Below, piece by piece: positions 1 to 13,400 of a stretch of 13,400 bases of DNA. Source of the DNA: Ignavibacteria bacterium (GTDB lineage: Bacteria > Elusimicrobiota > Endomicrobiia > PHAN01). The notes below the pieces were generated by a model. It had not been told where the DNA came from. It saw only the letters and a program-made list of their open reading frames with translations, and ran no database searches. The stretch is taken from assembly GCA_041694835.1 (NCBI GenBank), contig JBGFRZ010000031.1:1-13400 (forward strand), read 5' to 3'. The stretch's first letter is position 1; each line of letters starts with the position of its first letter. A program made the position numbers and the translations under genes.

Positions 1-73
1 TTGAGAGAAAATTCAGAAATTGAAAGAACTGTCAGCAATTTTTCAAACATAAATTGCTAAACCTACCGGCTAA

Positions 74-640
74 ATGGCGCTGGCTTTGCTAAATACTGAC
101 TTTTTCAACACTCTCATTATTCTAATATTCTCTATCTTTTTAGGTTGTGCTACTATTCCGAAAGTTGAAATTATTGAAGATAAATTTGATAACCATGTAA
201 TTTATAGAAAGGATTTCATTGCATTAGGCGGCAATTCTGGTTTTCTGTCACATTCAGCTATATCGCATGTTCGTTTAGCACTACAGAAATTTGTTAAGAG
301 TGATATTATAGTGTATCACTTGATTGTTCGATATGGGGGTGAAAATTGGTTATTTATTCCATCTGGAGAATCTTTGGTTATGCTTATTGATGGCGAAAGG
401 AAAGGATTTAGTGGTGACGGAAGTGAGAGACATCGTGAAGTTGTGCCTGTCTATGGTGCAGGTGTTGTTGTTATAGAAAAAGCATGGTATGAAATAAGTC
501 CCGATGATTTGATTAAAATCGCCAATGCTCGTGAGGTTAAAGTCAAAATAACAGGTGGGACCTATTTTTTAGAGAGGTATTTTACAGAAGAAAATTTTGA
601 GTATTTTGTAAGATTCGTTAAGGATTATGTAAAAAAATAG
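74..640 (+). CDS. Hypothetical lipoprotein
   Basis: 188-aa ORF. A hydrophobic stretch LIILIFSIFLG is followed by Cys (lipobox-like FLGC), then a soluble domain I cannot assign. No clear RBS, so the start is uncertain. Confidence 0.7.
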   Translation: MALALLNTDFFNTLIILIFSIFLGCATIPKVEIIEDKFDNHVIYRKDFIALGGNSGFLSHSAISHVRLALQKFVKSDIIVYHLIVRYGGENWLFIPSGESLVMLIDGERKGFSGDGSERHREVVPVYGAGVVVIEKAWYEISPDDLIKIANAREVKVKITGGTYFLERYFTEENFEYFVRFVKDYVKK

Positions 641-655
641 AATAGGTATTTTAGT

Positions 656-2335
656 ATGCCAAAACAAAAAATATCAGAACTTGAGGTGGAAAGAAGAAAA
701 TTTAAGCCGGTTTTGCCGTCGGTGTTTAAAAACGGACCCGTTGCGGTAAAGCCAAAATACGGCAGTCCGACTGAAAGCGCTACCGATCAAGAAACACTTC
801 ACAAACTTTTCCCAAATACATACGGTCTGCCGCTCGTAAATTTCATCAAAGACAAAAACACGGCCATTTCAAAAAAAACGATAAAAGCAGGCGTGGTTCT
901 CTCGGGCGGTCAAGCCCCCGGCGGACACAATGTAATAGCCGGGCTTTTCGACGGACTAAAAAAAGCCAATCCCAAAAATAAACTTATAGGATTTCTCGGC
1001 GGACCTTCCGGAATACTTGAAAATAAATGGAAGGAAATCACATCGCCTCTTTTGGTTAATTACAGAAATACCGGCGGATTTGACATCATTCAGTCGGGAA
1101 GGACAAAAATAGAGACACCTGAACAGTTTGAACAGACGAAAAAAGTTTTGACTGAAAATAAAATCAATGCCCTTGTCGTTGTAGGCGGAGACGACTCAAA
1201 CACCAACGCGGCGCTTCTTGCCGAGTACTTAAAAAAAGAAAAATTAAAAAGCGGTATAATCGGCGTTCCCAAGACGATTGATGGCGACTTAAAAAACGAA
1301 CAGATTGAGACATCTTTCGGATTCGACACGACGACAAAGATATACTCGGAACTCGTCGGAAATATCTGCCGCGACGCGTACTCGGCGAGAAAATACTGGC
1401 ATTTTGTGCGGCTTATGGGCAGAAGCGCCTCGCACATAACATTGGAAGTCGCCCTAAAAACTCGTCCCAATATCGCCCTTATAGGTGAAGAAGCGTTGGA
1501 TAGAAATATGACGCTTTCTCAAATCATAGATGATATCGCTAATGTGATAGTGAAACGCGCTCAAATGAAAAAAAACTTCGGAGTAATACTCGTTCCCGAG
1601 GGATTGATTGAGTTTATCCCCGAGATGAAAGAACTTATATCGGCATTAAACGACATTCTTGCACAAAACGAGTCGGCGATTAGTTCTATGTTTTCAGTCA
1701 AAGAAAAAGAAAATTTTATATTTACAAAACTTCCCGAAAATCTTGCAGCTCTTATGAAATCGCTTCCCGGCTTAATTTCTTCACAACTCCTTATTGACAG
1801 GGACCCACACGGCAATGTTCAGGTTTCTCAAATTGAGACAGAAAAACTTCTTATTGACATGTTAAAAGTAAAATTATCAGAACTTAAAAAAAGCGGTGCT
1901 TATAGCGGAAAATTTTCCACGATTACGCATTTCTTCGGATATGAAGGCCGTTGCGGGGCACCTTCAAATTTTGATGCAAATTACACCTATGCACTCGGAT
2001 ATAACTCGGCGGTTCTTGTACTTAACGAGCTTAGCGGGTATATGTCGTCTGTGAAAAAGTTGGTAAAAAAAGCATCTTTGTGGAAAGCGGGCGGAGTTCC
2101 TCTTACAATGCTTATGAACATAGAGAGAAGAAAAGGAAAAGAAAAACCGGTTATCAAAAAAGCGATTGTTAAATTGGACGACGGACCGTTCAAGCAATTG
2201 CTTAAAAACCGCGACAAATGGGCAATAACAGAAAGTTATATTTATCCCGGCCCGATTCAGTACTTCGGCACATCTTCGGTGACCGATATGACGACGATTA
2301 CGCTCAAATATGAACGACGAAAGAGGAGAGGGTAA
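656..2335 (+). CDS. pfp: Pyrophosphate-dependent phosphofructokinase (diphosphate--fructose-6-phosphate 1-phosphotransferase), long type
   Basis: 559 aa with motifs SGGQAPGGHNV, GGDDSNT (Asp at the PPi-specificity position), GVPKTIDGD, LMGRSASH and GYEGR. Confidence 0.95.
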   Translation: MPKQKISELEVERRKFKPVLPSVFKNGPVAVKPKYGSPTESATDQETLHKLFPNTYGLPLVNFIKDKNTAISKKTIKAGVVLSGGQAPGGHNVIAGLFDGLKKANPKNKLIGFLGGPSGILENKWKEITSPLLVNYRNTGGFDIIQSGRTKIETPEQFEQTKKVLTENKINALVVVGGDDSNTNAALLAEYLKKEKLKSGIIGVPKTIDGDLKNEQIETSFGFDTTTKIYSELVGNICRDAYSARKYWHFVRLMGRSASHITLEVALKTRPNIALIGEEALDRNMTLSQIIDDIANVIVKRAQMKKNFGVILVPEGLIEFIPEMKELISALNDILAQNESAISSMFSVKEKENFIFTKLPENLAALMKSLPGLISSQLLIDRDPHGNVQVSQIETEKLLIDMLKVKLSELKKSGAYSGKFSTITHFFGYEGRCGAPSNFDANYTYALGYNSAVLVLNELSGYMSSVKKLVKKASLWKAGGVPLTMLMNIERRKGKEKPVIKKAIVKLDDGPFKQLLKNRDKWAITESYIYPGPIQYFGTSSVTDMTTITLKYERRKRRG

Positions 2336-2336
2336 A

Positions 2337-3785
2337 ATGAAGGCAAACGAGCAAATTGTGAAAAAAACGATTCAAAGATGCAAGGAAAAAAACATAGTAA
2401 TTCCAACTTTTGCGCAGATGAAGGATCCTTCAAAAATTCCCCAGAAGATAAAGGACCAACTCAAAGGAGTTGGGCTTTGGGATATAAACCCGGTCAATCT
2501 TTTCAGAATAACTTGGAAAAACGACATAAAAACCGGACTTTACGGCGATGTGAATTTTTTGGAAATACCGAGGGGAATAACCGGCATTAAAGCAAGAATC
2601 ATTGGTCTGGTGGGGAAATACTTTCCGACGGGAGCTCATAAAGTCGGCGCCGCTTTTGGTTGTCTCGCCCCGCGTCTTGTTAGCGGCCAGTTCGACCCGA
2701 CGACGCAGAAAGCCGTCTGGCCGTCGACGGGCAATTACTGTCGTGGCGGAGCGTTTGACTGCGCCCTTTTGGGCGCTACTGCAGTGGCTATCCTCCCCGA
2801 AGAAATGAGCAAAGAAAGATTTGATTGGCTCAGAGAAATCGGAGCAGAAGTAATAGCGACGCCCGGAAGCGAGAGCAATGTCAAAGAGATTTACGACAAG
2901 TGCTGGGATATCAGAAAAAACAGAAAGGACTGCGTTATATTTAATCAGTTTGATGAATTCGGCAACTCCGTCTGGCATTATGAGGTTACCGCTTCCGCTA
3001 TGGAAGAAGCCTTCTTTCAACTTTCAACTCTCAACTCTCGACTACGTCTGTCGGCGTATGTTTCCGCCACAGGTTCAGCGGGGACTATCGCCGCCGGTGA
3101 TTATCTTAGAACGAAATTTCCTCATATAAAAGTAGCGGCGGTGGAGGCCCTTCAGTGTCCCACGCTTTGGCTAAATGGGTGGGGCGCTCACAGGATAGAG
3201 GGTATCGGCGATAAGCATGTTCCTTGGATACACAATGTCAGAAACACCGATATGGTAATCGCTGTAGATGACGAAAACACGATGAGGCTCCTCCGTCTTT
3301 TCAACGAACCCGACGGGGTAAAGTTGTTGAAAAAAAACGGTGTGTCGGAGGATGTTATATGCAGATTGAATCTTCTTGGTATTTCCGGAATCTGCAACAT
3401 GCTCGCGTCGATAAAGCTCGCAAAGTACTACGAACTCGGAGAAAACGATGTCGTATTTACGGTATTCACCGATTCCGCCGACATGTACAAATCTCGTCTT
3501 GAAGAATTGACCGAAGCCAGAGGTGAATACGTCGAGACCGATGCCGTGGCTGATTCTGAAAGATATCTAAAGGGCGTGGGTATTGATTATATGAAAGAAC
3601 TTTCATACTACGATAGAAAAGCGATTCATAATCTGAAATATTTTACCTGGGTCGAACAGCAGGGAAAAACATCCGAAGAACTTAATGAATTATGGAATCC
3701 GGAGTTTTGGCAAAAAATTTTCTCTCAAGCCACCAAGTGGGATGAACTTATAGAGGAGTTTAATAAAAAAACAGGGTTGGTATAA
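2337..3785 (+). CDS. Fold-type II PLP-dependent enzyme (CysK/TrpB-like superfamily, 482 aa)
   Basis: PLP-lysine motif FPTGAHKVG, PSTGNY, phosphate loop ATGSAGT and HRIEGIG (cf. CysK HKIQGIG). Start moved from 2310 to ATG 2337, which follows a GAGGAG RBS inside the pfp 3' end. Confidence 0.85.
   Translation: MKANEQIVKKTIQRCKEKNIVIPTFAQMKDPSKIPQKIKDQLKGVGLWDINPVNLFRITWKNDIKTGLYGDVNFLEIPRGITGIKARIIGLVGKYFPTGAHKVGAAFGCLAPRLVSGQFDPTTQKAVWPSTGNYCRGGAFDCALLGATAVAILPEEMSKERFDWLREIGAEVIATPGSESNVKEIYDKCWDIRKNRKDCVIFNQFDEFGNSVWHYEVTASAMEEAFFQLSTLNSRLRLSAYVSATGSAGTIAAGDYLRTKFPHIKVAAVEALQCPTLWLNGWGAHRIEGIGDKHVPWIHNVRNTDMVIAVDDENTMRLLRLFNEPDGVKLLKKNGVSEDVICRLNLLGISGICNMLASIKLAKYYELGENDVVFTVFTDSADMYKSRLEELTEARGEYVETDAVADSERYLKGVGIDYMKELSYYDRKAIHNLKYFTWVEQQGKTSEELNELWNPEFWQKIFSQATKWDELIEEFNKKTGLV
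3019..3039 (+). repeat. Intragenic heptamer tandem repeat (AACTYTC)x3
   Basis: aactttc aactctc aactctc, read in frame as QLSTLNSR within the PLP enzyme. Confidence 0.7.
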
Positions 3786-3977
3786 AGCAGATAACGGATA
3801 GCAGATAGCGAATAGTGCATAGAGGAGAGAGGTGAGAGATAAAAATGCCGCAAAGCGTAAAGCGTAAAGCGTAAAGCGTGAAGGGTGAACGGCTTTTAAC
3901 TCTTTCCGCTTCCCGCTTCCCGTTTTCTGTCCTCTGTCCTCTATTCTCTGTCCTCTGACTTGTGCTCTTGTGCACTA
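3786..3977. repeat. Composite heptamer tandem-repeat spacer
   Basis: AGCAGAT-type units 3786-3813; AGAGGWG 3821-3834; (AAAGCGT)x4 3852-3879; TTYCCGY x3 3903-3923; YYTCTRW x5 3924-3958; CTTGTGC x2 3959-3973. Confidence 0.95.
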
Positions 3978-3992
3978 ATATAGGGAGGTTTT

Positions 3993-4451
3993 ATGGTTAA
4001 AGTCGCCGTGGACGACAAACTTTCGTTGGAAAAGCAATCGCTTTTAAAGTTGGCTCTAAATCTTGCATGCGAACTTTCAGGTTCAGACGGGGGTTCGATT
4101 ATGACCGTTGTGGGCGAAAATCTTTTTATGTCCGCCTACAAGTCATCGGATCCGTCCGTCGATTCAGCGGGCAAAATCGGTATCACGCTTAAAATCGGAG
4201 AAAGGGTTGCCGGCAGATGCGCCCAAACGGGAGAGCCCATCATAATAGTCGGGGATATTTCCAAAGATTCTCGCTTTGGAGCCCTTAAGAAATTCCATGA
4301 AATAAAATCGGGTGCGTCTGTTCCGATGAAAAAGGGCGCTCAAGTCGTCGGAGTGATAAACATCAATAGATTGATGTCCGCCGCTCCGATGAGTCAGGAT
4401 GATGTCGACGTGATTTCGATTGTGGGTAAAAATTTGGCTGAATTGATATAA
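3993..4451 (+). CDS. Stand-alone GAF-domain protein
   Basis: 152 aa with a GGGAGG RBS. GAF-like pattern GSIM...LKIGERVAGRCAQTGEPIII...DISKDSRF...SVPM...VVGVINI...DDVDVI. No output domain. Confidence 0.85.
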   Translation: MVKVAVDDKLSLEKQSLLKLALNLACELSGSDGGSIMTVVGENLFMSAYKSSDPSVDSAGKIGITLKIGERVAGRCAQTGEPIIIVGDISKDSRFGALKKFHEIKSGASVPMKKGAQVVGVININRLMSAAPMSQDDVDVISIVGKNLAELI

Positions 4452-4464
4452 AGATTATTGAAAA

Positions 4465-4577
4465 AGTGTCGGTGATTAGTGTCGGTGTCAGTAATGACGC
4501 GCTGACACTGTCCACTGACACTGATGACACTGACAACTGACACTCTGTCACTATTATTACTTTGTCACTTTGTTGCC
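4465..4577. repeat. Inverted hexamer array (RGTGTC / ACTGAC) followed by octamer array
   Basis: agtgtcggtg and agtgtcggtgtcagt (4465-4492) face four (a)ctgacact-type blocks (4501-4544). These are followed by ctgtcact, ttattact, ttgtcact, ttgttgcc. Confidence 0.85.
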
Positions 4578-4637
4578 TATAACTTTACACTATGGCAGGG
4601 TTTTTCGATGGACTCATGACAAAACAAGGGAGGATTA

Positions 4638-5840
4638 ATGTTTTCGATTTCGCCGGAACGGTTCGCCGCCGCGGCAAAAAAGTATGAAACCGACATGGTT
4701 AAATTTGCACGGGCTCTCATCTCTATTCCAAGTTTTCCAATGCAGGAAGGAAAACTTGTCAAAAGAATAATTCAAGAGATGAAAAAAGTCGGTTTTGAGA
4801 GGGCATTTCACGACAAGATGGGCAATGTCGTCGGAGTCGTCGGCAGAGGCAAAACGAAAATAATGATTGACGCCCATATCGACACCGTCGGCGTCGGCGA
4901 CCCAAAAGCGTGGAAGTGGGACCCTTTCAAAGGTAAATACGAAAAAGGGATTATCTATGGCCGCGGCGCAACCGACCAGAAACTCTCGATGGTGCCGATG
5001 GTGTATGCCACCAAACTGATTAAAAATTTGAAACTTGACGGCGACTACACGCTTTGGATAGTGGGCTCTTGTCAGGAAGAGGACTGCGACGGATTGCCAT
5101 TGCTTCACATTATTCAGAAAGAAAAAATGAAACCCGATTATGTCGTCATAACCGAGCCGACGAATCTTCGCGTCTATAGGGGACATCGCGGAAGAATGGA
5201 GATGAAAGTCGTCGTCAAGGGACGCTCCTGCCACGCATCCGCTCCCGAGAGAGGCGACAACGCCGTCTGGAAAATGTCGTATGTGGTTCGGGAAATAACC
5301 GACCTCAACAAAAGATTAAAAAACGACAAGTTTCTCGGCAAGGGAACTGTCGCCGTCACAAAAATAGAGTGCCAGACGCCGTCGCTGAATGCGGTCCCCG
5401 ACGAATGCACGATTTATCTTGACAGGAGGCTTACTGACGGCGAAACGATGGATTTGGCCGTAAGTCAAATCAAAAAACTGCCGTCGGTCAAAAAATTCAA
5501 AGGAGATGTGGAAGTGCTCAAATATAAAGAAAAATCATGGACGGGGCTTGAGGTCGGTCAGGAAAAATATTATCCGACTTGGGTTATACCTGAAAATCAC
5601 AAACTGACCCAAGCGATGGTGAAAGCCGCGACAATCGCCCTCGGAGAAAAGCCCGTCGTTGACAAATGGACATTTTCAACGAATGGCGTTGCAACTATGG
5701 GTCGGCTTAAAATACCGACAATTGGTTTTGGTCCAGGCCATGAGATTTATGCTCATCAGGTGAACGAACAAATGCCCGTAGAACATTTGCTGAAAGCCGC
5801 GGTGTGCTATGCCGCCTTACCTCAGTTTCTCATAAAATAG
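4638..5840 (+). CDS. ygeY: YgeY-family M20/ArgE-like amidohydrolase
   Basis: 400 aa with DAHIDTVG, GRGATDQK, QEEDCDG, TEPT, GHRGRME, SCHASAPERGDNA, KWTFSTNGV and GFGPGHE. GGGAGG RBS; adjacent to ygeW. Confidence 0.9.
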   Translation: MFSISPERFAAAAKKYETDMVKFARALISIPSFPMQEGKLVKRIIQEMKKVGFERAFHDKMGNVVGVVGRGKTKIMIDAHIDTVGVGDPKAWKWDPFKGKYEKGIIYGRGATDQKLSMVPMVYATKLIKNLKLDGDYTLWIVGSCQEEDCDGLPLLHIIQKEKMKPDYVVITEPTNLRVYRGHRGRMEMKVVVKGRSCHASAPERGDNAVWKMSYVVREITDLNKRLKNDKFLGKGTVAVTKIECQTPSLNAVPDECTIYLDRRLTDGETMDLAVSQIKKLPSVKKFKGDVEVLKYKEKSWTGLEVGQEKYYPTWVIPENHKLTQAMVKAATIALGEKPVVDKWTFSTNGVATMGRLKIPTIGFGPGHEIYAHQVNEQMPVEHLLKAAVCYAALPQFLIK

Positions 5841-5855
5841 ACGCAAATTTTATCC

Positions 5856-5902
5856 AGTAGTTATTACTAAATGGTAATCATTACTAACAAGTAATCATTA
5901 CT
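5856..5902. repeat. Three 13-bp palindromes (AGTAATCATTACT consensus) at 17-bp period
   Basis: agtagttattact at 5856, ggtaatcattact at 5873, agtaatcattact at 5890. Confidence 0.85.
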
Positions 5903-5945
5903 AAACAATTGAGAAATACATTGGCTTGATAAAAGGAGGTTTGAA

Positions 5946-7145
5946 ATGTCTCAAAAACTTGCTCTAAAAAAGGCGTTGACTGAATTGTCAGAACTGAAGA
6001 CAAAATTTTACAACAATAATTTTCTACTGACATGGCAGAGAACTGACGACGAAATAAGAGCAGTGCTTGTTCTGGCTGAGATACTGAAAGAACTCTACAG
6101 CCAGAATATCTCCCTCAAAGTTTTTCAATCAGGCATTGCAGTTTCAAACTTTCGCGACCAATCCACGAGAACAAGATTTTCATTCGCTTCCGCCGCAAAT
6201 CTTCTGGGTCTTACCTCGCAGGATTTAGAAGAGGGAAAATCACAGATTGCACACGGCGAGACAGTGCGAGAGACGGCCAATATGATTTCATTTCTGACCG
6301 AAGTTATCGGGATAAGGGACGATATGTATATCGGCAAAGGGCATACATACATGAAAGAAGTTTCGGATGCAGTCGACGACGGTTTTAAAAACGGAGTTTT
6401 GAATCAACGTCCTGCCGTCGTCAATCTTCAGTGCGATCTCGACCATCCTACCCAGGTGATGGCGGACCTTCTTTTCCTGAAAAATTACTTCGGCGGTTTT
6501 GAAAATCTTAAGGGAAAAAGAATCGCAATGACATGGGCATATTCTCCCAGTTACGGCAAACCGCTTTCAGTTCCCCAGGGAATAATCACCCTTATGACGA
6601 GATTCGGAATGGATGTTGCTCTCGCTTATCCGCAGGGCTACGATTTGCTCCCTGAGACGATAGATGTTTCTAAAAAACACGCGCAAAAATCCGGCGGCAA
6701 GTTCGGCGTTTCAAATTCAATGCAAGAAGCGTTCAAGGATGCCGATATTATGTATCCCAAATCGTGGGCTTCGTATAAGGTTATGGAAAAAAGAACAAAA
6801 ATCGTAGAGCAAAATGACGCATCGGCTCTGAAAGAACTTGAAAAGCAATGCCTTTCCGAAAACGCCACTCACAAGGACTGGACTTGCGACGAAAAGATGG
6901 TCAAACTCACAAAAAAGGGCGAAGCGGTTTATCTGCACTGTCTGCCGGCCGATATCAGCGACGTCTCGTGCAAAGAAGGCGAGGTCTCGGCGGATGTTTT
7001 TGAGAAATACAGAATTGGAACTTATAAAGAGGCCGGCTTCAAGCCCTTTGTTATAGCGGCGATGATAATGTTTTGCAGATTTAAAAATCCTGATGCCGTC
7101 GTCGAAGAACTTCTAAAAAAATCCCAACAAAGGGTGTCTTATTGA
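5946..7145 (+). CDS. ygeW: Knotted carbamoyltransferase YgeW
   Basis: 399 aa with FRDQSTRT, QIAHGETVRET, NLQCDLDHPTQ, WAYSPSYGKPLSVPQG, YPKSW and HCLPAD. AAGGAGGT RBS. Confidence 0.95.
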   Translation: MSQKLALKKALTELSELKTKFYNNNFLLTWQRTDDEIRAVLVLAEILKELYSQNISLKVFQSGIAVSNFRDQSTRTRFSFASAANLLGLTSQDLEEGKSQIAHGETVRETANMISFLTEVIGIRDDMYIGKGHTYMKEVSDAVDDGFKNGVLNQRPAVVNLQCDLDHPTQVMADLLFLKNYFGGFENLKGKRIAMTWAYSPSYGKPLSVPQGIITLMTRFGMDVALAYPQGYDLLPETIDVSKKHAQKSGGKFGVSNSMQEAFKDADIMYPKSWASYKVMEKRTKIVEQNDASALKELEKQCLSENATHKDWTCDEKMVKLTKKGEAVYLHCLPADISDVSCKEGEVSADVFEKYRIGTYKEAGFKPFVIAAMIMFCRFKNPDAVVEELLKKSQQRVSY

Positions 7146-7200
7146 CGTATCAGTATCCGACAATTAATTGCTATTGGGATGTTATGAAATTTGTCGAGCG

Positions 7201-7224
7201 GTGTATTAGTGTTTTAGTTTTTTA
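7201..7224. repeat. Short degenerate octamer array
   Basis: gtgtatta gtgtttta gtttttta, immediately before the arcC RBS. Confidence 0.5.
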
Positions 7225-7239
7225 AGCGGAGATAAAACC

Positions 7240-8181
7240 ATGTCCAAAACGATAGTAGTTGCAATCGGTGGCAATTCTCTCATTAAAGACGAAAAACACA
7301 TGAGCGTGAAAGACCAGTATGATTGCATACGCGAAACGGCGCGTCATCTGGCGGCTTTGATTGAAGCGGGCAACAAAGTTGTCATAACCCACGGCAACGG
7401 GCCGCAGGTCGGATTTATTTTGCTTCGCTCCGAACATTCCCGGGGAATACTTCACGAAGTCCCCCTTGATTCGATAGTCGCAGATACCCAAGGTGCCATC
7501 GGTTATCAACTGCAACAAGCGATTCAAAATGAACTATGGAAAAAGAAAATCAAAAAAAATGTAGTTACGGTTATCACTCAAACGCTTGTCGACAAAAATG
7601 ACCCGGCTTTTAAAAATCCGACAAAGCCAATCGGACAGTTTTATACCCATCCGGAAGCAAAAGATAGAATGAATAAAGAAAAATGGACGATGGTAGAAGA
7701 CGCCGGGCGCGGATGGAGAAGGGTTGTTCCTTCGCCTGAACCCGTAAGAGTAATAGAGAGCAAGGAAATAAAAAATCTTGTCAATGAAGATGTCGTCGTA
7801 ATCGCCGCGGGAGGCGGCGGAATTCCGGTCGTGTCGGATGAAAGCGGAAATCTTTCCGGCGTCGCGGCGGTTATCGACAAGGACCTGGCCAGCGCAGCGC
7901 TTTCAAAAGAAATAGAAGCGGATTTACTTGTGATTTCAACCGCCGTTCCAAAGGTGTATATAAATTTCGGCAAACCCGACCAGAAAGCAATCGATAAAAT
8001 GACTGTCGCGGAAGCGAAAAAATATATTGAAGAAGGACATTTTAAACCCGGCTCTATGCTCCCAAAAATTCAGGCGTGCATTCAATTTATAATTTCCGGC
8101 GGCAAGGAATCTCTCATAACGATGCCTGAGACTCTATCTGAGTCGCTTGCCGGGGAAAACGGTACATTGATTGTATCTTAA
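7240..8181 (+). CDS. arcC: Carbamate kinase (ArcC/YqeA)
   Basis: 313 aa with VAIGGNSL, THGNGPQVG, TKPIG, EDAGRGWRRVVPSP, AVIDKD and GSMLPK. Confidence 0.95.
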   Translation: MSKTIVVAIGGNSLIKDEKHMSVKDQYDCIRETARHLAALIEAGNKVVITHGNGPQVGFILLRSEHSRGILHEVPLDSIVADTQGAIGYQLQQAIQNELWKKKIKKNVVTVITQTLVDKNDPAFKNPTKPIGQFYTHPEAKDRMNKEKWTMVEDAGRGWRRVVPSPEPVRVIESKEIKNLVNEDVVVIAAGGGGIPVVSDESGNLSGVAAVIDKDLASAALSKEIEADLLVISTAVPKVYINFGKPDQKAIDKMTVAEAKKYIEEGHFKPGSMLPKIQACIQFIISGGKESLITMPETLSESLAGENGTLIVS

Positions 8182-8211
8182 GGACATTAAACAATCTCAA
8201 CACATATCATT

Positions 8212-8412
8212 GTCAATAGTCCACGGTCCATAGACCATAGTGCTCTGTGACAGAAATAGTCGCCCATTTATGGGCGGTTTTGAATATAATGCTCAGCCAT
8301 CAACTATCCCGCAAAGTGCGGGGGGTGGGGCGGTAATCGGCAACTACATATGCTCAATTATCCGTGTCACAGAGCAAGAGTATGTGGATTCTGTCGACCA
8401 TCGACTATCGAC
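8212..8412. mobile_element. MITE-like element (8241-8376) nested between inverted heptamer arrays
   Basis: Perfect 12-bp inverted repeat TGCTCTGTGACA (8241-8252) / TGTCACAGAGCA (8365-8376) with internal hairpins. Flanked by GTCCATA-type x4 (8212-8239) and CTATCGA-type x3 (8391-8411). Mobility is inferred. Confidence 0.6.
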
Positions 8413-8449
8413 GGTGCTGTGGGTTAATGACTTTTTCATTGCGCTTATT

Positions 8450-9793
8450 ATGAAAAAAAAATACACATTTGCCGCTATACTTTTTCTGCTATTTTTTCTG
8501 CTCTTTCCTTTAAGTATCCCACACTTGACGGATATAGTCAGCGGCTCAGTTGTAACCGATTATTCTATAAAATACGGAATGTTGAGACACATATTTGAAC
8601 CGGTTTTTGGGCTGTCCGATTATTTTTCTTCATTTGCTGATTACCGCGGACAGCTTCTTTCATGGATTCTTTGGCTTTGGTTTTTTGTAATTTTGTTTAA
8701 TGTTGGAAAACTTTCCCGTCTGGAGATTAAAAAATTCATAATCGTTAACCTTAAATTTTTAACATTTTTTTTGCTTTGGGTGTTCTTTGTAGTTATATTC
8801 CCAAATCCTGCCCATAAAATCACATCTAAGACAGATTTTTTAGCGGTCGATTTTCATTCTCACACATATTACTCTCATGACGCTATAGCCTCTCCGAGGA
8901 TGAGTCTGAAATACCATAAAAGACATGGCTTTGGCGCTTTTTTCATAACGGAACACCAGAATACCGATTCTTATGAAAAATTGCTGAAAGTTGCGGCTCG
9001 GCACATGGACCACAAAGTATTTCCGGGTATCCAACAACAAACAAAAGACGGAATTTCCGTTTTGATACTCGGGGAAGAGAAGTTTTCGGCCGAAGAATTT
9101 CATGATAAAACGATAAAGGAAATCGTGGCATTGGCTCATAGGCGAAAGATGTCAGTGATAATTCCTCACTGGTGGAAGTGGGGAAGGCCATCTTGGTCGG
9201 ATTTGAAAAACTGGGGTATCGACGGATTCGAGATATACAATACAGGTTATAGAAATTTTAGCGACGAAGAAAGAAAAAAACTCACGGAATTTTGCAAAAA
9301 AAACAACCTGATTATGACCGCCTCGCCGGATTGGCACGGTTGGACGAGTAGCGGAGACGTCTGGAATGTTTATGAAAAATCGGGATTGGAAAATATGACT
9401 GCGGAAGATTTGCTCTTTGATGAAAGAGGTAAAATAAAACAACCGACGAGAGTTATCGTATTGAGAAAGTTCGGCGAACACTCCAAATTAAGGACTATCT
9501 TTGAGCCGTTCGTGGGACTTTATTATTATTTCAGAGATATGAACCCGCTAAAATTTCTCTCATGGTCATTTTGGATTTTAGTAATTGGTCTTGGGTATGA
9601 CAAGCTGAAAAAATATGGCAGATATTTTTGGTATGTTATTTTTGCCGCGGTAATTTATTATGCATTGAAGTATGCTTATTTTTACATAATACTTTACCCC
9701 GACAACCGCCCCACAGGACAACTCTCGCTGTTTCTTATTTTCATAGCGGCGATGCTTTTTCTTGTTGTAATCCCAAAAAAAGGAAAATTGTAG
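8450..9793 (+). CDS. Integral-membrane protein with central PHP (polymerase/histidinol phosphatase) domain
   Basis: Likely start MKKKYTF at ATG 8450. About three N-terminal and three C-terminal hydrophobic helices. PHP motifs DFHSHTYYSHD, ITEH, IIPHW, DGFEIYN and SPDWHG. Confidence 0.85.
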   Translation: MKKKYTFAAILFLLFFLLFPLSIPHLTDIVSGSVVTDYSIKYGMLRHIFEPVFGLSDYFSSFADYRGQLLSWILWLWFFVILFNVGKLSRLEIKKFIIVNLKFLTFFLLWVFFVVIFPNPAHKITSKTDFLAVDFHSHTYYSHDAIASPRMSLKYHKRHGFGAFFITEHQNTDSYEKLLKVAARHMDHKVFPGIQQQTKDGISVLILGEEKFSAEEFHDKTIKEIVALAHRRKMSVIIPHWWKWGRPSWSDLKNWGIDGFEIYNTGYRNFSDEERKKLTEFCKKNNLIMTASPDWHGWTSSGDVWNVYEKSGLENMTAEDLLFDERGKIKQPTRVIVLRKFGEHSKLRTIFEPFVGLYYYFRDMNPLKFLSWSFWILVIGLGYDKLKKYGRYFWYVIFAAVIYYALKYAYFYIILYPDNRPTGQLSLFLIFIAAMLFLVVIPKKGKL

Positions 9794-9909
9794 CGGCTGT
9801 CTTAATTTTCGTATCTTTTGGCCGCCGCGATTGATAATATCGTTTTCTTTCATAAACATCTCCGATTCACTGTCATTAAATACCACACACTAAAAGATGT
9901 ATAGAACAC

Positions 9910-9944
9910 TTGACAATCCACACTTAAAAGTTGTATTGTATAAT
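9910..9944 (+). promoter_or_regulatory. Candidate sigma70 promoter with duplicated operator-like motif
   Basis: TTGACA 9910-9915, then TATTGT after 18 bp and TATAAT (9939-9944) after 23 bp. The motif CACAC(T)TAAAAGWTGTAT occurs at ~9886 and ~9919. Confidence 0.4.
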
Positions 9945-10100
9945 GAAGCCGCTGAAAGACTTTATTGTGATCGAAACGGTTGTAGTTGCACCGCTCTCCA
10001 CCAAAGACACTCGGGGACAAGCTTTGCGGTGTTTTAGTTCATCCCGCATTGACAGATTGGAGTGTGGGAATGCTGTTTTGCAATAGTAACAAAATAACCG

Positions 10101-10131
10101 CGAACAAGTGTTCGCAGCGAACAAATGTTCG
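10101..10131. promoter_or_regulatory. Two tandem CGAAC-N4-GTTCG palindromes (Gram-positive-type LexA box consensus)
   Basis: cgaacaagtgttcg 10101-10114 and cgaacaaatgttcg 10118-10131. Regulatory role unproven. Confidence 0.5.
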
Positions 10132-10149
10132 GAAATAATTAAAAACGGG

Positions 10150-10197
10150 TTGATTTTGATTCGGAAAAAAAATAACCGAACATATGTTCGGTTATTT
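10150..10197. repeat. Direct repeat copy A, containing perfect 28-bp palindrome AAATAACCGAACATATGTTCGGTTATTT
   Basis: Palindrome at 10170-10197. The block aligns with 10962-11006. Confidence 0.9.
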
Positions 10198-10271
10198 AAA
10201 TAACTCACTACTGCCCACATCGGACATGAGTGAGGATAATCGGCGTTTGAAAACGCCAAGGAGGTGATTTT

Positions 10272-10559
10272 ATGTCAAAAATAGTTTTGCTGGTTTGTCT
10301 TTTTAGTTTGTTTTTGACCGGATGTGCTACGCACAGGCATATAGTTGGTGATGGTTCTCAAACCGGCGTCACGAAAAGTGAAAGACAATGGTATGCTCTT
10401 TATGGGTTAGTGCCACTTGGAGAAGTTGATACAAAAGATATGTCCGGCGGCGCGGAGGATTATGAAATTAAAACCGAGGAATCCGTTGAGGATTTTCTTT
10501 TAAACCTGGTGACCGGTATGATGACCATTGTGTCAAGAACTGTAACTGTCGCAAAATAG
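10272..10559 (+). CDS. Bor/Iss-like small lipoprotein
   Basis: 95 aa with AAGGAGG RBS and lipobox LTGC. Pattern QWYALYGLVP...IKTEES..D.LL.L.T......RTVTV resembles Bor-family proteins. Confidence 0.75.
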   Translation: MSKIVLLVCLFSLFLTGCATHRHIVGDGSQTGVTKSERQWYALYGLVPLGEVDTKDMSGGAEDYEIKTEESVEDFLLNLVTGMMTIVSRTVTVAK

Positions 10560-10599
10560 TATTCTCTCTTTGCGGGCAGTTCTAATCTGTAACATACAC

Positions 10600-10638
10600 C
10601 TGTGGGCGGGGTTTAATCCCCGCCTACAGTTTCTCTTT
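10600..10638 (+). terminator. GC-rich hairpin with T-rich tail; REP-like
   Basis: ctgtgggcgggg-tttaat-ccccgcctacag followed by tttctcttt, 40 bp after the lipoprotein stop. Confidence 0.65.
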
Positions 10639-10841
10639 ACCCATCCATAATGAAATGATTTGCTCCTCGTTTTCATAGGGCACACAATCAATCCCTCTTG
10701 ATAGAACATATCTTTTGTAAAACCCCCTGACAAAAAATTAGAAATATGTTAGATGTTAGAATAATAATGAATATAAAAGAATACAATGGTGAATGTATTT
10801 TAGCGAAGCGTCAGTGAACCCTATTTTAGCAGTGCTTTCAT

Positions 10842-10893
10842 AAATCTCTCTGCTTCGCTTCCCCCTTTGTAAAAGGGGGATTGAGGGGGATTT
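10842..10893. repeat. Nested palindrome (REP-like)
   Basis: Core hairpin tcccccttt-gta-aaaggggga (10860-10880) inside imperfect arms aaatctctct / agggggattt. Confidence 0.7.
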
Positions 10894-10961
10894 ACTCCTG
10901 CTTGTGGTCACAATGACAAAATAGATGCCAACCAATTATGCAAAATTCAATAGTTATGCAC

Positions 10962-11009
10962 TTGTCTTGACTCAGAAAAAATAACCGGACATATGTTCGG
11001 TTATTTTTT
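10962..11009. repeat. Direct repeat copy B; palindrome that may double as the rlmB terminator
   Basis: aaaaaataaccggacatatgttcggttatttttt (10976-11009) abuts the rlmB stop codon and differs from copy A by one base in the core. Confidence 0.85.
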
Positions 11010-11740
11010 TAGATGTTGATTTTTTGGCGGAAAATTTCGTAGCAAATTATGGATGCCGACATAGCGGCGTTTAGCGATGAGATTTTTTCTGTTATTGGTA
11101 TTGAGATGAGAAAATCACATTTTTCCTTTGTTAGATGTCTCAGCCCCTTCCCCTCGCTTCCTATAACGACGGCGACCCTTCCCTTAAGTTCAATCTTGCT
11201 TATCAACTTCCCCGACATATCGGCTCCGTAAATCCAGAAACCATTTTCTTTTAGTTTCTCAATCACCTGTGAAATGTTGACGACTTTAACTATGTTGGCG
11301 TATTCTACAGCGCCCGCCGAAGCTTTGACGGTGCCTGAAGAAATTCCCGCAGATGTTTTTTCCTGAACTATTATTCCGTCCACTCCAAAGCAAACCGCCG
11401 AACGGATTATTGAGCCGAGATTCTGAGGGTCTTCGATTTCGTCGAGTATGCAAATCGTGGCGCTTTCTTTGTTTTTGAGCGAGGATATTAAATCGTCAAG
11501 AGACAAATATTCTTTGGGCGATATATATGCGACAATCCCCTGGTTGTTTTTGGAATAACCGATTAGGTTTTTTCCTTCAACAAATTCAATGATTATTCCT
11601 TTGTCTTTCGCCAGTGCGATAATTTGAGCGACTATTTTACCTTCGGAGTTTTTTGCAACGAGGATTTTTTTTATTTTTCTTTTCCCGGCTTTTAGCGCTT
11701 CATAGACAGGGTGTCTACCATATATTATCTGATATTCCAT
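11009..11740 (-). CDS. rlmB: 23S rRNA (guanosine-2251-2'-O)-methyltransferase, SpoU/TrmH family
   Basis: IYGRHPVYEAL, LDEIEDPQNLGSIIRSA, VIGSEGKGL and SSLNAA. Typical position downstream of cysS. Confidence 0.93.
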   Translation of the reverse strand: MEYQIIYGRHPVYEALKAGKRKIKKILVAKNSEGKIVAQIIALAKDKGIIIEFVEGKNLIGYSKNNQGIVAYISPKEYLSLDDLISSLKNKESATICILDEIEDPQNLGSIIRSAVCFGVDGIIVQEKTSAGISSGTVKASAGAVEYANIVKVVNISQVIEKLKENGFWIYGADMSGKLISKIELKGRVAVVIGSEGKGLRHLTKEKCDFLISIPITEKISSLNAAMSASIICYEIFRQKINI

Positions 11741-11762
11741 ATTTTTAACTTGTCACACGATA

Positions 11763-11784
11763 AATTCGAACAAATGTTCGAATT
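11763..11784. repeat. 22-bp near-perfect palindrome with CGAAC-N4-GTTCG core
   Basis: aattcgaacaaatgttcgaatt in the cysS-rlmB spacer. Confidence 0.8.
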
Positions 11785-11798
11785 CTCCGACGATGTAA

Positions 11799-13205
11799 TT
11801 ATATTTTTTTTATCCTCGGGCCGAATTTTGTGTCTTCTATTTCAAAACCCAGAGTTTTTATCTTTTCTCTTATTTCGTCGGAGCGTCTCCAGTCTTTTGA
11901 CTTTCTAGCGATTTGTCGCTCATCGGCAAGTTTAATTACATCGGGAGGTATTGTCTCAGAGGTTGAAAGGTCTATTCCGAGTATGTTGAATAATTCCGTG
12001 AGTGTTTCAATGACAAACAGCAGTGTTTTTTTATTTAGTCCTTGCGGCTTATCTCTGTTCAAAATAAGAAGATGATTACTCGCTGAATGTATTGCCGCCA
12101 ACGCTTCCGCCGTATTGAAATCGTCGGACATCGCTTTGTTAAATTTATCTTTTATGCTTTTTATCAATTCTTCCGTGCCGCCGACTATTGTATTGCTAAC
12201 TTCGGAAACTTGCTGAACCAATATGTGCGCATCAAAAATTGCGTTTTTAATTCTTTCAATAGCATGTTTCGACTGCTCAAGTTTGTGGTCCGAAAAATCT
12301 ATCGGAGAGCGATAGTGTTGGCTTATGAGAAAATATCGGACAACCATTGGTTCATATTTTTTAAATATGTCTTCAAGTGCAAAAAAATTGCCGAGTGATT
12401 TTGACATTTTTTCATTGTTGATTGTTACAAATCCGTTATGAAGCCAATACTTCACGAATTCCCGCCCTAACGCCGCTTCCGACTGGGCAATCTCATTTTC
12501 GTGGTGGGGGAAAATAAGGTCTTGCCCGCCGCCGTGGATATCAAAAGTGTCAAATCCAAATTCGTCAAGAGACATAACCGAACACTCTATATGCCATCCC
12601 GGACGTCCTTTACCCCACGGACTATCCCATGAGGGCTCGCCTTCTTTTGATTTTTTCCAAAGAGCGAAATCCAGCGGGTCTTTTTTCTGTTCGCCGACTT
12701 CTACTCTTGCACCCGCTTTCAACTCTTCGATGTTTCGTTTGGAGAGTTTCCCGTAATCGGCGGATTTTCTGACTGAAAAATACACATCGCCGTCGATTTC
12801 ATAAGCATATCCGTTTGCGATTATTTTTTTTATCAACCCGACAATCTGCGGTATTTTTTGGGTCACTCTCGGATATGAGTTGGCATCCAAAACATTTAAT
12901 TTTCTCATCTGAACAAAATAATCGTCAATATATCTATTGGCTAACTCTAAACTCTCAACTCTCAACTCTAAACTCTTATTTATGATTTTATCGTCGATGT
13001 CTGTAAAATTTTGAATGTATTTGACTTTATATCCGCAATGAATTAAATATCTTCTTATGACATCGAAAACCACGTAACAACGCGCATGGCCAAGATGAAC
13101 TCTGTCATACGGGGTTATCCCGCAGACATACATATTGACTTTATTTTCTTTGACGGGCTTAAAAATTTCCTTGGCGCAGCTTAAGGTATTGTATAGTTTG
13201 AGCAT
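11799..13205 (-). CDS. cysS: Cysteine--tRNA ligase
   Basis: MYVCGITPYD, HLGH (HIGH), GRPGWHIECS, DIHGGGQDLIFPHHENE, KMSKS and DDFNT. Confidence 0.98.
   Translation of the reverse strand: MLKLYNTLSCAKEIFKPVKENKVNMYVCGITPYDRVHLGHARCYVVFDVIRRYLIHCGYKVKYIQNFTDIDDKIINKSLELRVESLELANRYIDDYFVQMRKLNVLDANSYPRVTQKIPQIVGLIKKIIANGYAYEIDGDVYFSVRKSADYGKLSKRNIEELKAGARVEVGEQKKDPLDFALWKKSKEGEPSWDSPWGKGRPGWHIECSVMSLDEFGFDTFDIHGGGQDLIFPHHENEIAQSEAALGREFVKYWLHNGFVTINNEKMSKSLGNFFALEDIFKKYEPMVVRYFLISQHYRSPIDFSDHKLEQSKHAIERIKNAIFDAHILVQQVSEVSNTIVGGTEELIKSIKDKFNKAMSDDFNTAEALAAIHSASNHLLILNRDKPQGLNKKTLLFVIETLTELFNILGIDLSTSETIPPDVIKLADERQIARKSKDWRRSDEIREKIKTLGFEIEDTKFGPRIKKI
12943..12977. repeat. Intragenic heptamer tandem repeat (AACTCTH)x5
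   Basis: aactcta aactctc aactctc aactcta aactctt, encoding KSLELRVESLEL in CysS on the - strand. Confidence 0.9.
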
Positions 13206-13269
13206 TTTAATTTTTTTTAGTTTGTATAAATTTCAGACGCTCGATTTCCATACTTATTCGTTTATTGTC

Positions 13270-13400
13270 TAGTGTCCTGTCCCGCAAATACCTTTACATT
13301 TGCTGTTCGTATTTTGTTTCAGCGTCAAGGCGCGAGGAGCGAAGCATACCCTCTGCGGTATGTAAGCGACGAGCAACGCCGACGATGAACAAAAGACATC
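13270..13400. mobile_element. Possible MITE-like/structured dispersed element, probably truncated by the window end
   Basis: Begins TAGTGTCCTGT (cf. TAGTGCTCTGT at 8238). Long imperfect hairpin ttttgtttcagcgtc (13312-13326) / gacgatgaacaaaa (13381-13394) with inner stem gcatacc/ggtatgt. Confidence 0.45.

Follow-up and report, generated by a model that had tools for sequence, protein, structure and literature searches.

Nested heptamer arrays between two genes of an Ignavibacteria bacterium probably represent one copy of a non-coding foldback element dispersed in the genome

We analyzed a 13.4-kb window of DNA from an Ignavibacteria bacterium (assembly GCA_041694835.1, contig JBGFRZ010000031.1, positions 1 to 13,400), which is an entire contig of a 1.9-Mb, 89-contig draft genome with 42.5% G+C. 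Within it, a spacer of 7-nt units (3786-3977) separates the gene for a pyridoxal phosphate (PLP)-dependent enzyme from the gene for a GAF-domain protein. This spacer probably derives from a non-coding foldback element of 7-nt units that is dispersed in the genome, being a copy that has diverged and become shorter internally, and is a gene-less member of a class resembling the intervening sequences (IVS) of rRNA genes. Such an element would comprise a short unique core and apex inside nested arrays, purine-rich on the 5' side and pyrimidine-rich, partly complementary, on the 3' side. The class would consist of the hairpins with a purine arm followed by a pyrimidine arm of heptamers that are found genome-wide; its gene-bearing members would hold a PF05635 gene in the apex, and the window copy would be comparable to IVS that lack an open reading frame (ORF).

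The spacer sequence recurs throughout the genome. When window positions 3826-3930 were used as the query, nhmmer returned 36 matches in the same genome, falling into 20 distinct loci. The 19-mer AATAAAATGCCGTAAAGCG, which belongs to the non-periodic part, occurred exactly 13 times, and the junction 18-mer CCCGCTTCCCGTTTTCTG at the 3903-3930 arm was exactly common to six copies. A core of more than 100 nt was common to the copies, whose identity to the copy on contig C81 ranged from 73 to 94%; at 73%, the window copy was among the most diverged. The individual units were also sought genome-wide and were found all over the genome, so the original prediction for this spacer, which had described heptamer blocks left by mobile DNA or folded into an mRNA hairpin, was not contradicted on that point.

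The repeat starts at 3786, the base directly after the TAA of the upstream gene, and ends, as read from the sequence, at 3977. Its parts and the adjoining gene signals are as follows.

3783-3785, plus strand: TAA stop codon that closes the gene upstream, that of the PLP-dependent enzyme (2310-3785; Pfam PALP)
3786-3820, plus strand: outer purine-rich block, five heptamers of the AATAGCG family (AGCAGAT, AACGGAT, AGCAGAT, AGCGAAT, AGTGCAT)
3821-3841, plus strand: middle purine-rich block (AGAGGAG, AGAGGTG, AGAGATA)
3842-3851, plus strand: non-periodic family marker, AAAATGCCGC in the window copy and AATAAAATGCCGT in most copies
3852-3893, plus strand: inner purine-rich arm, (AAAGCGT)x4, GAAGGGT, GAACGGC
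3894-3902, plus strand: hairpin apex loop, TTTTAACTC
3903-3930, plus strand: inner pyrimidine-rich arm, TTTCCGC, TTCCCGC, TTCCCGT and the transitional TTTCTGT
3931-3958, plus strand: middle pyrimidine-rich block (CCTCTGT, CCTCTAT, TCTCTGT, CCTCTGA)
3959-3977, plus strand: outer pyrimidine-rich block, CTTGTGCT octamer family
3983-3995, plus strand: Shine-Dalgarno-like GGGAGG (3983-3988) and ATG (3993) of the GAF-domain gene
3760-3975, minus strand: stop-free frame of 71 codons, wholly inside the repeat

We take the minus-strand frame as an artefact of the repeat and not as a gene; it is one of 14 repeat-made ORFs (>40% repeat) that were dropped from the genome-wide gene map. No credible ORF was found within the spacer, and a search of window positions 3500-6100 revealed no Rfam family at E ≤ 1.

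All the units listed in the original prediction were present (eight at 3786-3841, six at 3852-3893 and nine at 3903-3965), as was the inverted pair that it had noted, TAGTGCA at 3813-3819 and TGCACTA at 3971-3977. The purine-rich then pyrimidine-rich layout is likewise real, both in the sequence and in the single-hairpin fold described below. The 7-bp register that had been proposed for the whole spacer held inside the left block and inside the right block, but not between the three blocks, whose offsets break it (3852-3786 = 9x7+3; 3903-3852 = 7x7+2). Tandem Repeats Finder (TRF) reported period-7 arrays at 3786-3809, 3852-3889, 3902-3922 and 3926-3957. The lag-7 identity, defined as the fraction of bases matching the base 7 positions further on, was 0.654 over 3786-3977, compared with 0.247 ± 0.034 (maximum 0.351; z = 12) in 1000 dinucleotide-preserving shuffles. 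Each of the three sub-blocks was significant by itself (z 5.2, 6.5 and 5.5), and peaks were also seen at lags 14 and 21. Along the right block, the unit types change in phase, from TTCCCGT through TTTCTGT to CCTCTGT.

The same block order was found across the aligned copies, whose core is itself 7-nt periodic. In the orientation of the window, the 5' side runs from AATAGCG-type through AGAGGTG-type units and the marker to the inner hairpin, and the 3' side from the inner hairpin through TTCCCGC-type and CCTCTGT-type units to octamers of the CTTGTGCT type; in the inner hairpin, AAAGCG(G/T) and GAAGGGT units surround a short apex. Blocks varied between copies from 2 to about 25 units, and two internal segments found in long copies were missing from the window copy. 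In some copies the inner hairpin was inverted relative to the marker, with eight loci of one type and six of the other, the window copy belonging to the six-locus group (type II). The marker at 3842-3851 defines the orientation of the element. It was gene-sense in three copies, including the window copy, antisense in 11 and unrecognizable in six, which places the window copy in the minority. The assignment of the spacer to a defined family of 20 loci, in which the core is conserved and the apex can be inverted, is new here.

The surroundings of the copies support insertion. Seventeen of the 20 loci lay between co-directional genes (six of these were overlapped by a crude, over-extended ORF), one lay beside a contig end, and two were inside valS. 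In this gene (contig C49, 18965-22120; 1051 residues), residues 207-278 and 567-638 are element copies translated in the same frame, about 72 amino acids each, and a third, smaller repeat insert was observed near residues 489-512. The valS orthologues of two genomes of the sister genus, G001 and G002, were 66% identical otherwise and lacked all three inserts.

The window locus was also compared with that of relatives. Genomes of the sister genus retain the order of PALP gene then GAF gene but have another sequence between them. The orthologous spacer of G002 was about 100 nt long and contained a different 14-mer repeat and its complement, forming a hairpin, and that of G001 consisted of about 107 nt of GC-rich hairpins with no heptamers; the spacer is therefore not invariant among relatives, a point that the original prediction had left to be checked. 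A further relative, G009, had a different neighbour gene at the junction. Among the 41 genomes searched, the full core was present only in this genome. In the sister genus, the inner hairpin has shorter relatives flanked by different units (7 and 5 matches); the search of 38 further genomes of the class yielded none. An exact 24-mer and an exact 22-mer of the core had 0 matches in species-representative and viral collections, from which the genome itself was perhaps excluded. In a separate metagenome scan, the GAF protein had one relative, with 44% identity.

We favor a history in which the element would have been inserted or copied between the two genes and would then have drifted through unit-wise slippage and point change. 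Slipped-strand mispairing could make the arrays grow, shrink and drift; because change of this kind proceeds unit by unit, new variants would arise in register and neighbouring units would be alike. The element would spread as selfish DNA to sites that tolerate a hairpin, such as operon spacers between a stop codon and a ribosome-binding site, surface loops of proteins, and the tips of rRNA helices.

To describe the spacer at the RNA level, its predicted fold was compared with those of shuffled sequences. The plus-strand RNA formed a single long imperfect hairpin (approximately 3788-3957, about 170 nt) of -71.1 kcal/mol, and none of 200 shuffles was as stable (z -3.39); the long imperfect hairpin of the original prediction is thus borne out structurally. 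Stem pairing was typically 5 bp followed by a 2x2 mismatch per heptamer, as in the 3821-3841 block, which pairs with the CCTCTGT block by 5 bp and two mismatches in each unit. The outer block at 3959-3977 made a small hairpin of its own, and the GAF ribosome-binding site and ATG were unpaired in the minimum-energy fold. The stem has no U-tail, and a terminator and promoter scan detected no terminator-like or promoter-like site within 3786-3977. An intrinsic terminator was accordingly rejected, and transcription should read through. In the polycistronic transcript, the mismatch-punctuated stem could be inert, or it may be cut by RNase III, by analogy with the 23S rRNA IVS described in the available text of Warrier et al. 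(2016; PMC4990558). Such a cut would part the upstream and GAF messages without ending transcription, and an RNase III gene is present in the genome.

These properties could also be those of a host-selected signal for RNA processing or stability, through which the relative amounts of the upstream enzyme and the GAF protein would be set, as by the stem-loops of enterobacterial repetitive extragenic palindromic (REP) sequences and bacterial interspersed mosaic elements (BIMEs). The spacer fits exactly between the stop codon and the next ribosome-binding site of co-directional genes; that site is free, no terminator-like site intervenes, and the relatives' junction spacers, at about 100 nt, are hairpin-prone as well. 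Moreover, the mRNA strand of the window copy (-67.8 kcal/mol) has a fold more stable by 9 kcal/mol than that of the antisense strand (-58.8 kcal/mol). Across the family, however, the mRNA strand was the more stable one at just 5 of the 20 loci, and in 9 of the 11 antisense copies the better-folding strand was the one carrying the marker. Folding asymmetry tracks the orientation of the element and not the mRNA strand. This lack of a sense-strand bias speaks against host selection at the RNA level, and it also counts against the RNA-level role allowed for in our own reading. Given further that the spacer sequence is unconserved even in the sister genus, that copies occur in both orientations, and that the same element is found in frame within valS and at unrelated junctions, we regard a host signal as unlikely.

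The proposed class, of which the foldback element would be a gene-less member, would carry PF05635 genes in its gene-bearing members. PF05635 is the 23S rRNA intervening-sequence protein (S23p, an Avd-like four-helix bundle). The genome has 12 full-length PF05635 genes (three on contig C52, two each on C55, C81 and C39, and one each on C6, C8 and C7) and three fragments. No other of the 41 genomes searched has as many; 1 and 3 were counted in the sister genus, and 21 of the 41 genomes have none. At 11 of the 12 genes, a purine-rich array extends from the upstream stop codon to the gene start and a complementary pyrimidine-rich array follows downstream; the twelfth meets a contig end 115 nt downstream. 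All nine PF05635 genes inspected in nine other genomes of the class were likewise bracketed, each by its own units. Matched arms of these cassettes paired at a mean of -46.2 kcal/mol, compared with -29.3 ± 9.8 kcal/mol for mismatched arms, and the own partner arm was the best of 21 in 10 of 21 cassettes. Four cassettes use GAGCACAA/CTTGTGCT units, and one, on C6, uses GCGAATA/TATTCGC units; these are the families of the window's outer blocks. Two decaying cassettes were also observed, one with a fragmented gene and both arms retained (C6, 5740-6230) and one reduced to the purine arm and an N-terminal gene fragment (C8, 780-1120).

A similarly built insert was found in the genome's own 23S rRNA gene, which is partial and lies at a contig end (C31, 14794-16492, minus strand). 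Near model position 1895, a loop of 3 nt in the Rfam model corresponds to 132 nt in the gene, which form a purine-then-pyrimidine hairpin of GGTAGAA and CCCTCTA units with no ORF. The same gene also holds a pair of group I introns, one near model position 1954 (RF00028, 69.7 bits; about 236 nt) and one near 1980 (54.4 bits; about 235 nt). According to the available text of Warrier et al. (2016; PMC4990558), an rRNA IVS is a selfish, stem-bordered sequence that is cut out by RNase III and carries an S23p ORF after strain-variable, purine-rich tandem heptamers. We found no paper connecting PF05635 genes with genome-wide heptamer arrays in the open-access full text, which is no proof of absence in print.

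We next consider the arrays of the genome as a whole. TRF returned 800 period-7 and 403 period-8 rows, compared with 34 and 43 after mononucleotide shuffling. This corresponds to 41.9 period-7 rows per 100 kb, whereas samples of relatives gave 5.0 (G001, sister genus, 80 kb), 2.5 (G009, 40 kb), 6.7 (G020, 60 kb) and 15.0 (G010, 20 kb, AT-rich). The commonest unit families in the genome are those in the window spacer: ACAGAGG (= CCTCTGT), the most frequent heptamer family, had 50 rows and AATAGCG 42, and the octamers AAGAGCAC and AAGTGCAC, the two main variants of the CTTGTGCT-type family of the window's outer block, had 47 and 42. Arrays covered 10.3% of intergenic and 1.8% of 'coding' bases on the crude ORF map, the latter figure being inflated because stop-free repeats lengthen ORF calls.

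The arrays showed a nearly absolute polarity. Of the 196 clusters of arrays that were 70 nt or longer, 115 ran from purine to pyrimidine and 2 in reverse (39 were one-sided and 40 mixed). Similarly, for the purine-rich arrays that were 21 nt or longer (355 in all), a pyrimidine-rich array was present within 200 nt on the 3' side in 177 cases and on the 5' side in 6. Since the purine-then-pyrimidine order is invariant to reverse complementation, it belongs to the duplex and holds for transcription of either strand. The rule may descend from the gene-bearing form, in which the purine-rich 5' arm would provide a Shine-Dalgarno-like region for the ORF in the apex in either orientation; alternatively, it may keep C-rich RNA from being exposed before its partner is made, and so avoid Rho. 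The centres of the 115 clusters belong to several families with differing units and apexes (one component of 68 members, many small ones and singletons). Unpaired arrays were purine-rich on the sense strand in ratios of 103:38 in clean co-directional spacers, 84:105 where ORFs overlap and 187:143 in total, counts that are confounded by over-long crude ORF calls, which swallow stop-free pyrimidine arrays. One of the cluster families is a second dispersed foldback family, found at 14 loci in both orientations (for example, C75:20938, C55:36000 and C28:43165), with AGAGG/CCTCT-type arms and the apex GGGAATGGAAATTTTTATTCAATTCC.

A broader proposal follows the same lines as our reading of the window copy and is held more tentatively: it is possible, though we would not expect it, that bacterial purine-then-pyrimidine heptamer hairpins are the ends and gene-less remnants of one widespread, undescribed selfish class with PF05635 as its sole gene. 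The 23S IVS would then be its rRNA-resident members, a novel transposase-free copying mechanism would produce or employ the arrays, and the window spacer would be a non-autonomous member able to colonize any transcribed site, whether operon spacer, protein loop or rRNA helix.

The same PF05635 genes could be enlisted for a different explanation, in which the arrays are protein binding sites that organize DNA or RNA, with one unit per subunit of a pentameric PF05635 or cold-shock-type protein. Several features would suit it: the unit is strictly 7 nt long, the 12 PF05635 genes always lie between arrays, and the only solved sequence relative of the PF05635 protein is the Xanthomonas campestris protein 2GSC (E 3e-19). 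PF05635 also resembles Avd, a nucleic-acid-handling protein of diversity-generating retroelements (available portion of PMC10053308), and one cold-shock protein per heptamer is mentioned in the available portion of PMC4679880. The unit sequences, however, vary widely across families and genomes, which would be hard to reconcile with one sequence-specific binder, and we judge this role improbable.

Layered scars, left by successive insertions and excisions at this one site, had been named first in the original prediction; different elements would have left them. The onion-like layout, with three block pairs around an apex, is what such a history could leave, and each layer is also found alone elsewhere: the inner hairpin occurs by itself at C71:15020, at C88:16014 and in the sister genus, AGAGG/CCTCT arms also surround other apexes, and decaying gene cassettes leave arms behind. 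However, the order of the layers and the junction sequences, including the 18-mer that is exact in six copies, recur at other loci. The layering is therefore older than the arrival at this site and came with the element. Nor do nested insertions account well for the pyrimidine arm, where unit types morph in phase, since independent insertions would give the right phase about 1 time in 7 per junction; the differentiation of one array fits better. The idea of insertion and excision stands in so far as inserted, mobile-type DNA is supported, and falls where it calls for successive events at this site. We thus consider layered scars very unlikely, and the whole composite being seen at many sites, the reading survives solely as a statement on the ancestry of the family. 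A possible nested insertion into an 'AATAAAA' apex was dropped, as the resemblance to another family's apex is a mere 9 nt. Least likely of all is growth in place without mobility, through replication slippage and fold-back copying with convergent units: it would suit the variable unit number, the many hairpins with private apexes and the single-copy state of the other spacers of the operon, but not a non-periodic 19-mer repeated exactly at 13 places, a core of over 100 nt shared at 73-94% identity, or two copies in a conserved valS whose relatives have none.

Several observations weigh against the foldback-element reading itself, and no mechanism by which the element would move was found. The copies have no fixed termini, their ends being arrays that vary in unit type and number, and in the window copy the outer block of AATAGCG type is not complementary to the outer block of CTTGTGCT type. 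No target-site duplication was recognized by eye, base-level boundaries being unsettable with relatives only about 70% identical. A linked transposase was not found, transposase families beyond the REP-associated tyrosine transposases (RAYTs) not having been searched. One RAYT-like gene is present (C41, 8757-9467; 236 amino acids; NF047646 score 62.7 bits, short of the 80 required by NCBIfam), but it is flanked by inverted GGGGACGGTCCTC palindromes, which have about five copies in the genome and are not heptamer arrays; as these palindromes are unrelated to the element, RAYT was rejected as its transposase. No reverse transcriptase domain (RVT_1) was found in the genome. There was no detectable similarity between the window core and the PF05635 cassettes, none of which was among the nhmmer matches, and no PF05635 match lay on the window's own contig, C43; what links the window family to PF05635 is consequently its architecture, its polarity and the arm units common to both. 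Finally, the gene map is a crude ORF map and the assembly a draft in 89 contigs.

Other features of the window were noted. According to Pfam, the genes at 2310-8181 encode the PLP enzyme, the GAF protein, an M20 peptidase, a carbamoyltransferase-like protein and an amino-acid (carbamate) kinase, which together resemble a cluster of the Escherichia coli ygeX-ygeY-ygeW-yqeA type. Two further spacers in this cluster were single-copy in the genome by nhmmer. The one between the GAF and M20 peptidase genes (4452-4637) is a hairpin of GTGTCGGTG-type then CTGACACTG-type units, with a fold of -56.9 kcal/mol (z -4.3), no lag-7 periodicity and promoter-like sites at 4530-4557 and 4562-4591. The other (5841-5945) has 2.5 copies of a palindromic 17-nt unit (ATTACT...AGTAAT) and a weak fold (z -1.9). 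An AACTCTA array of 4.9 copies (12943-12976), encoding KSLELRVESLEL, lies inside the catalytic domain of cysS (minus strand, 11799-13205); because residues 15-313 correspond to Pfam profile positions 2-300 without net insertion, the repeat units seem to spell out a native stretch of the protein. Repeat-like non-coding DNA is also present at 10590-10900, with the inverted repeat GGGCGGGGTTTAATCCCCGCC near 10605 and 1.9 copies of AGGGGGATTG at 10874-10892, and at 13240-13400, where a GC-rich stretch reaches the contig end.

The over-representation of heptamers in bacteria has been known, and unexplained, for nearly twenty years, according to the available text of PMC4692102. A single genome here unites a composite hairpin family, a near-absolute polarity, in-frame copies in an essential gene, valS, a 23S rRNA insert of like build and PF05635 cassettes, making concrete the hypothesis that intergenic heptamer hairpins are elements of the same kind as the intervening sequences of rRNA. 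The 20-locus family, the polarity counts, the copies in valS and 23S rRNA, and the bracketing of PF05635 genes in this genome and nine relatives are new here. For annotation, such repeats carry a warning, as they bring spurious stop-free ORFs, breaks in short-read assemblies and repeat-encoded loops in conserved proteins.

Among known systems, the palindromic elements of Rickettsia come close in behaviour. They are dispersed palindromes, known only from Rickettsia, which insert into intergenic DNA as well as, in frame, into conserved protein genes and are not known to be tandem heptamers. Like them, the present family enters genes in frame, as valS exemplifies for copies other than that of the window; unlike them, it is built of tandem heptamers, and the likeness is one of behaviour. 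REP/BIME sequences with their RAYTs, known from enterobacteria and pseudomonads, are hairpin repeats that fill operon spacers in mosaics. The present element differs from them in being far longer and 7-nt periodic, and the RAYT-like gene of the genome is flanked by a different palindrome. The foldback (FB) elements of Drosophila have long inverted arms of variable short tandem repeats around a unique centre and are kilobase-scale, eukaryotic and transposase-associated; their resemblance to the spacer element is one of arm architecture only. With transposable elements of the miniature inverted-repeat type (MITEs), the family shares many dispersed non-coding copies, but not fixed inverted termini, a recognizable target duplication or a detected link to a transposase.

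Lineage-specific intergenic tandem heptamers of unexplained function are described in the available portions of PMC4679880 and PMC4692102, namely the short tandemly repeated repetitive (STRR) heptanucleotide sequences of cyanobacteria and the TAACTGA arrays of Beggiatoaceae. As far as these texts go, both are mostly direct arrays with a fixed orientation to the downstream gene, whereas the inverted pair, purine then pyrimidine, dominates here. Closer in form are the convergent inverted pairs of heptameric GGGAATC arrays, of which Xanthomonas campestris and X. axonopodis have 70 and 75 (Rehm et al., 2015; PMC4692102, available portion). There, the unit is single, G-rich and quadruplex-forming; here, there are dozens of families, mostly without G-runs (read from the sequence only, the window units AAAGCGT, AGAGGTG, AATAGCG and CCTCTGT have no repeated runs of three or four G), the layers are nested around a conserved multi-copy core, and some copies lie in frame in genes. 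In the same portion of that paper, the Xanthomonas pairs resemble the present ones in being intergenic tandem 7-nt units in convergent, stem-loop-capable arrays whose length varies between relatives while the type is retained; a connection with any gene is not mentioned there.

The 23S IVS of Coxiella and Leptospira offer the nearest comparison for the class as a whole (Warrier et al., 2016; PMC4990558, available portion). The window copy differs from them in lying between protein genes, outside the tip of a 23S helix, and in having no PF05635 ORF; mismatches occur in its stem at two per 7 nt, in contrast to the nearly perfect 28-bp stem of the IVS, and excision by RNase III is described in that source for the IVS. 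What they would have in common is a selfish nature, and what they share in structure are the complementary borders and the long stem that these borders form.

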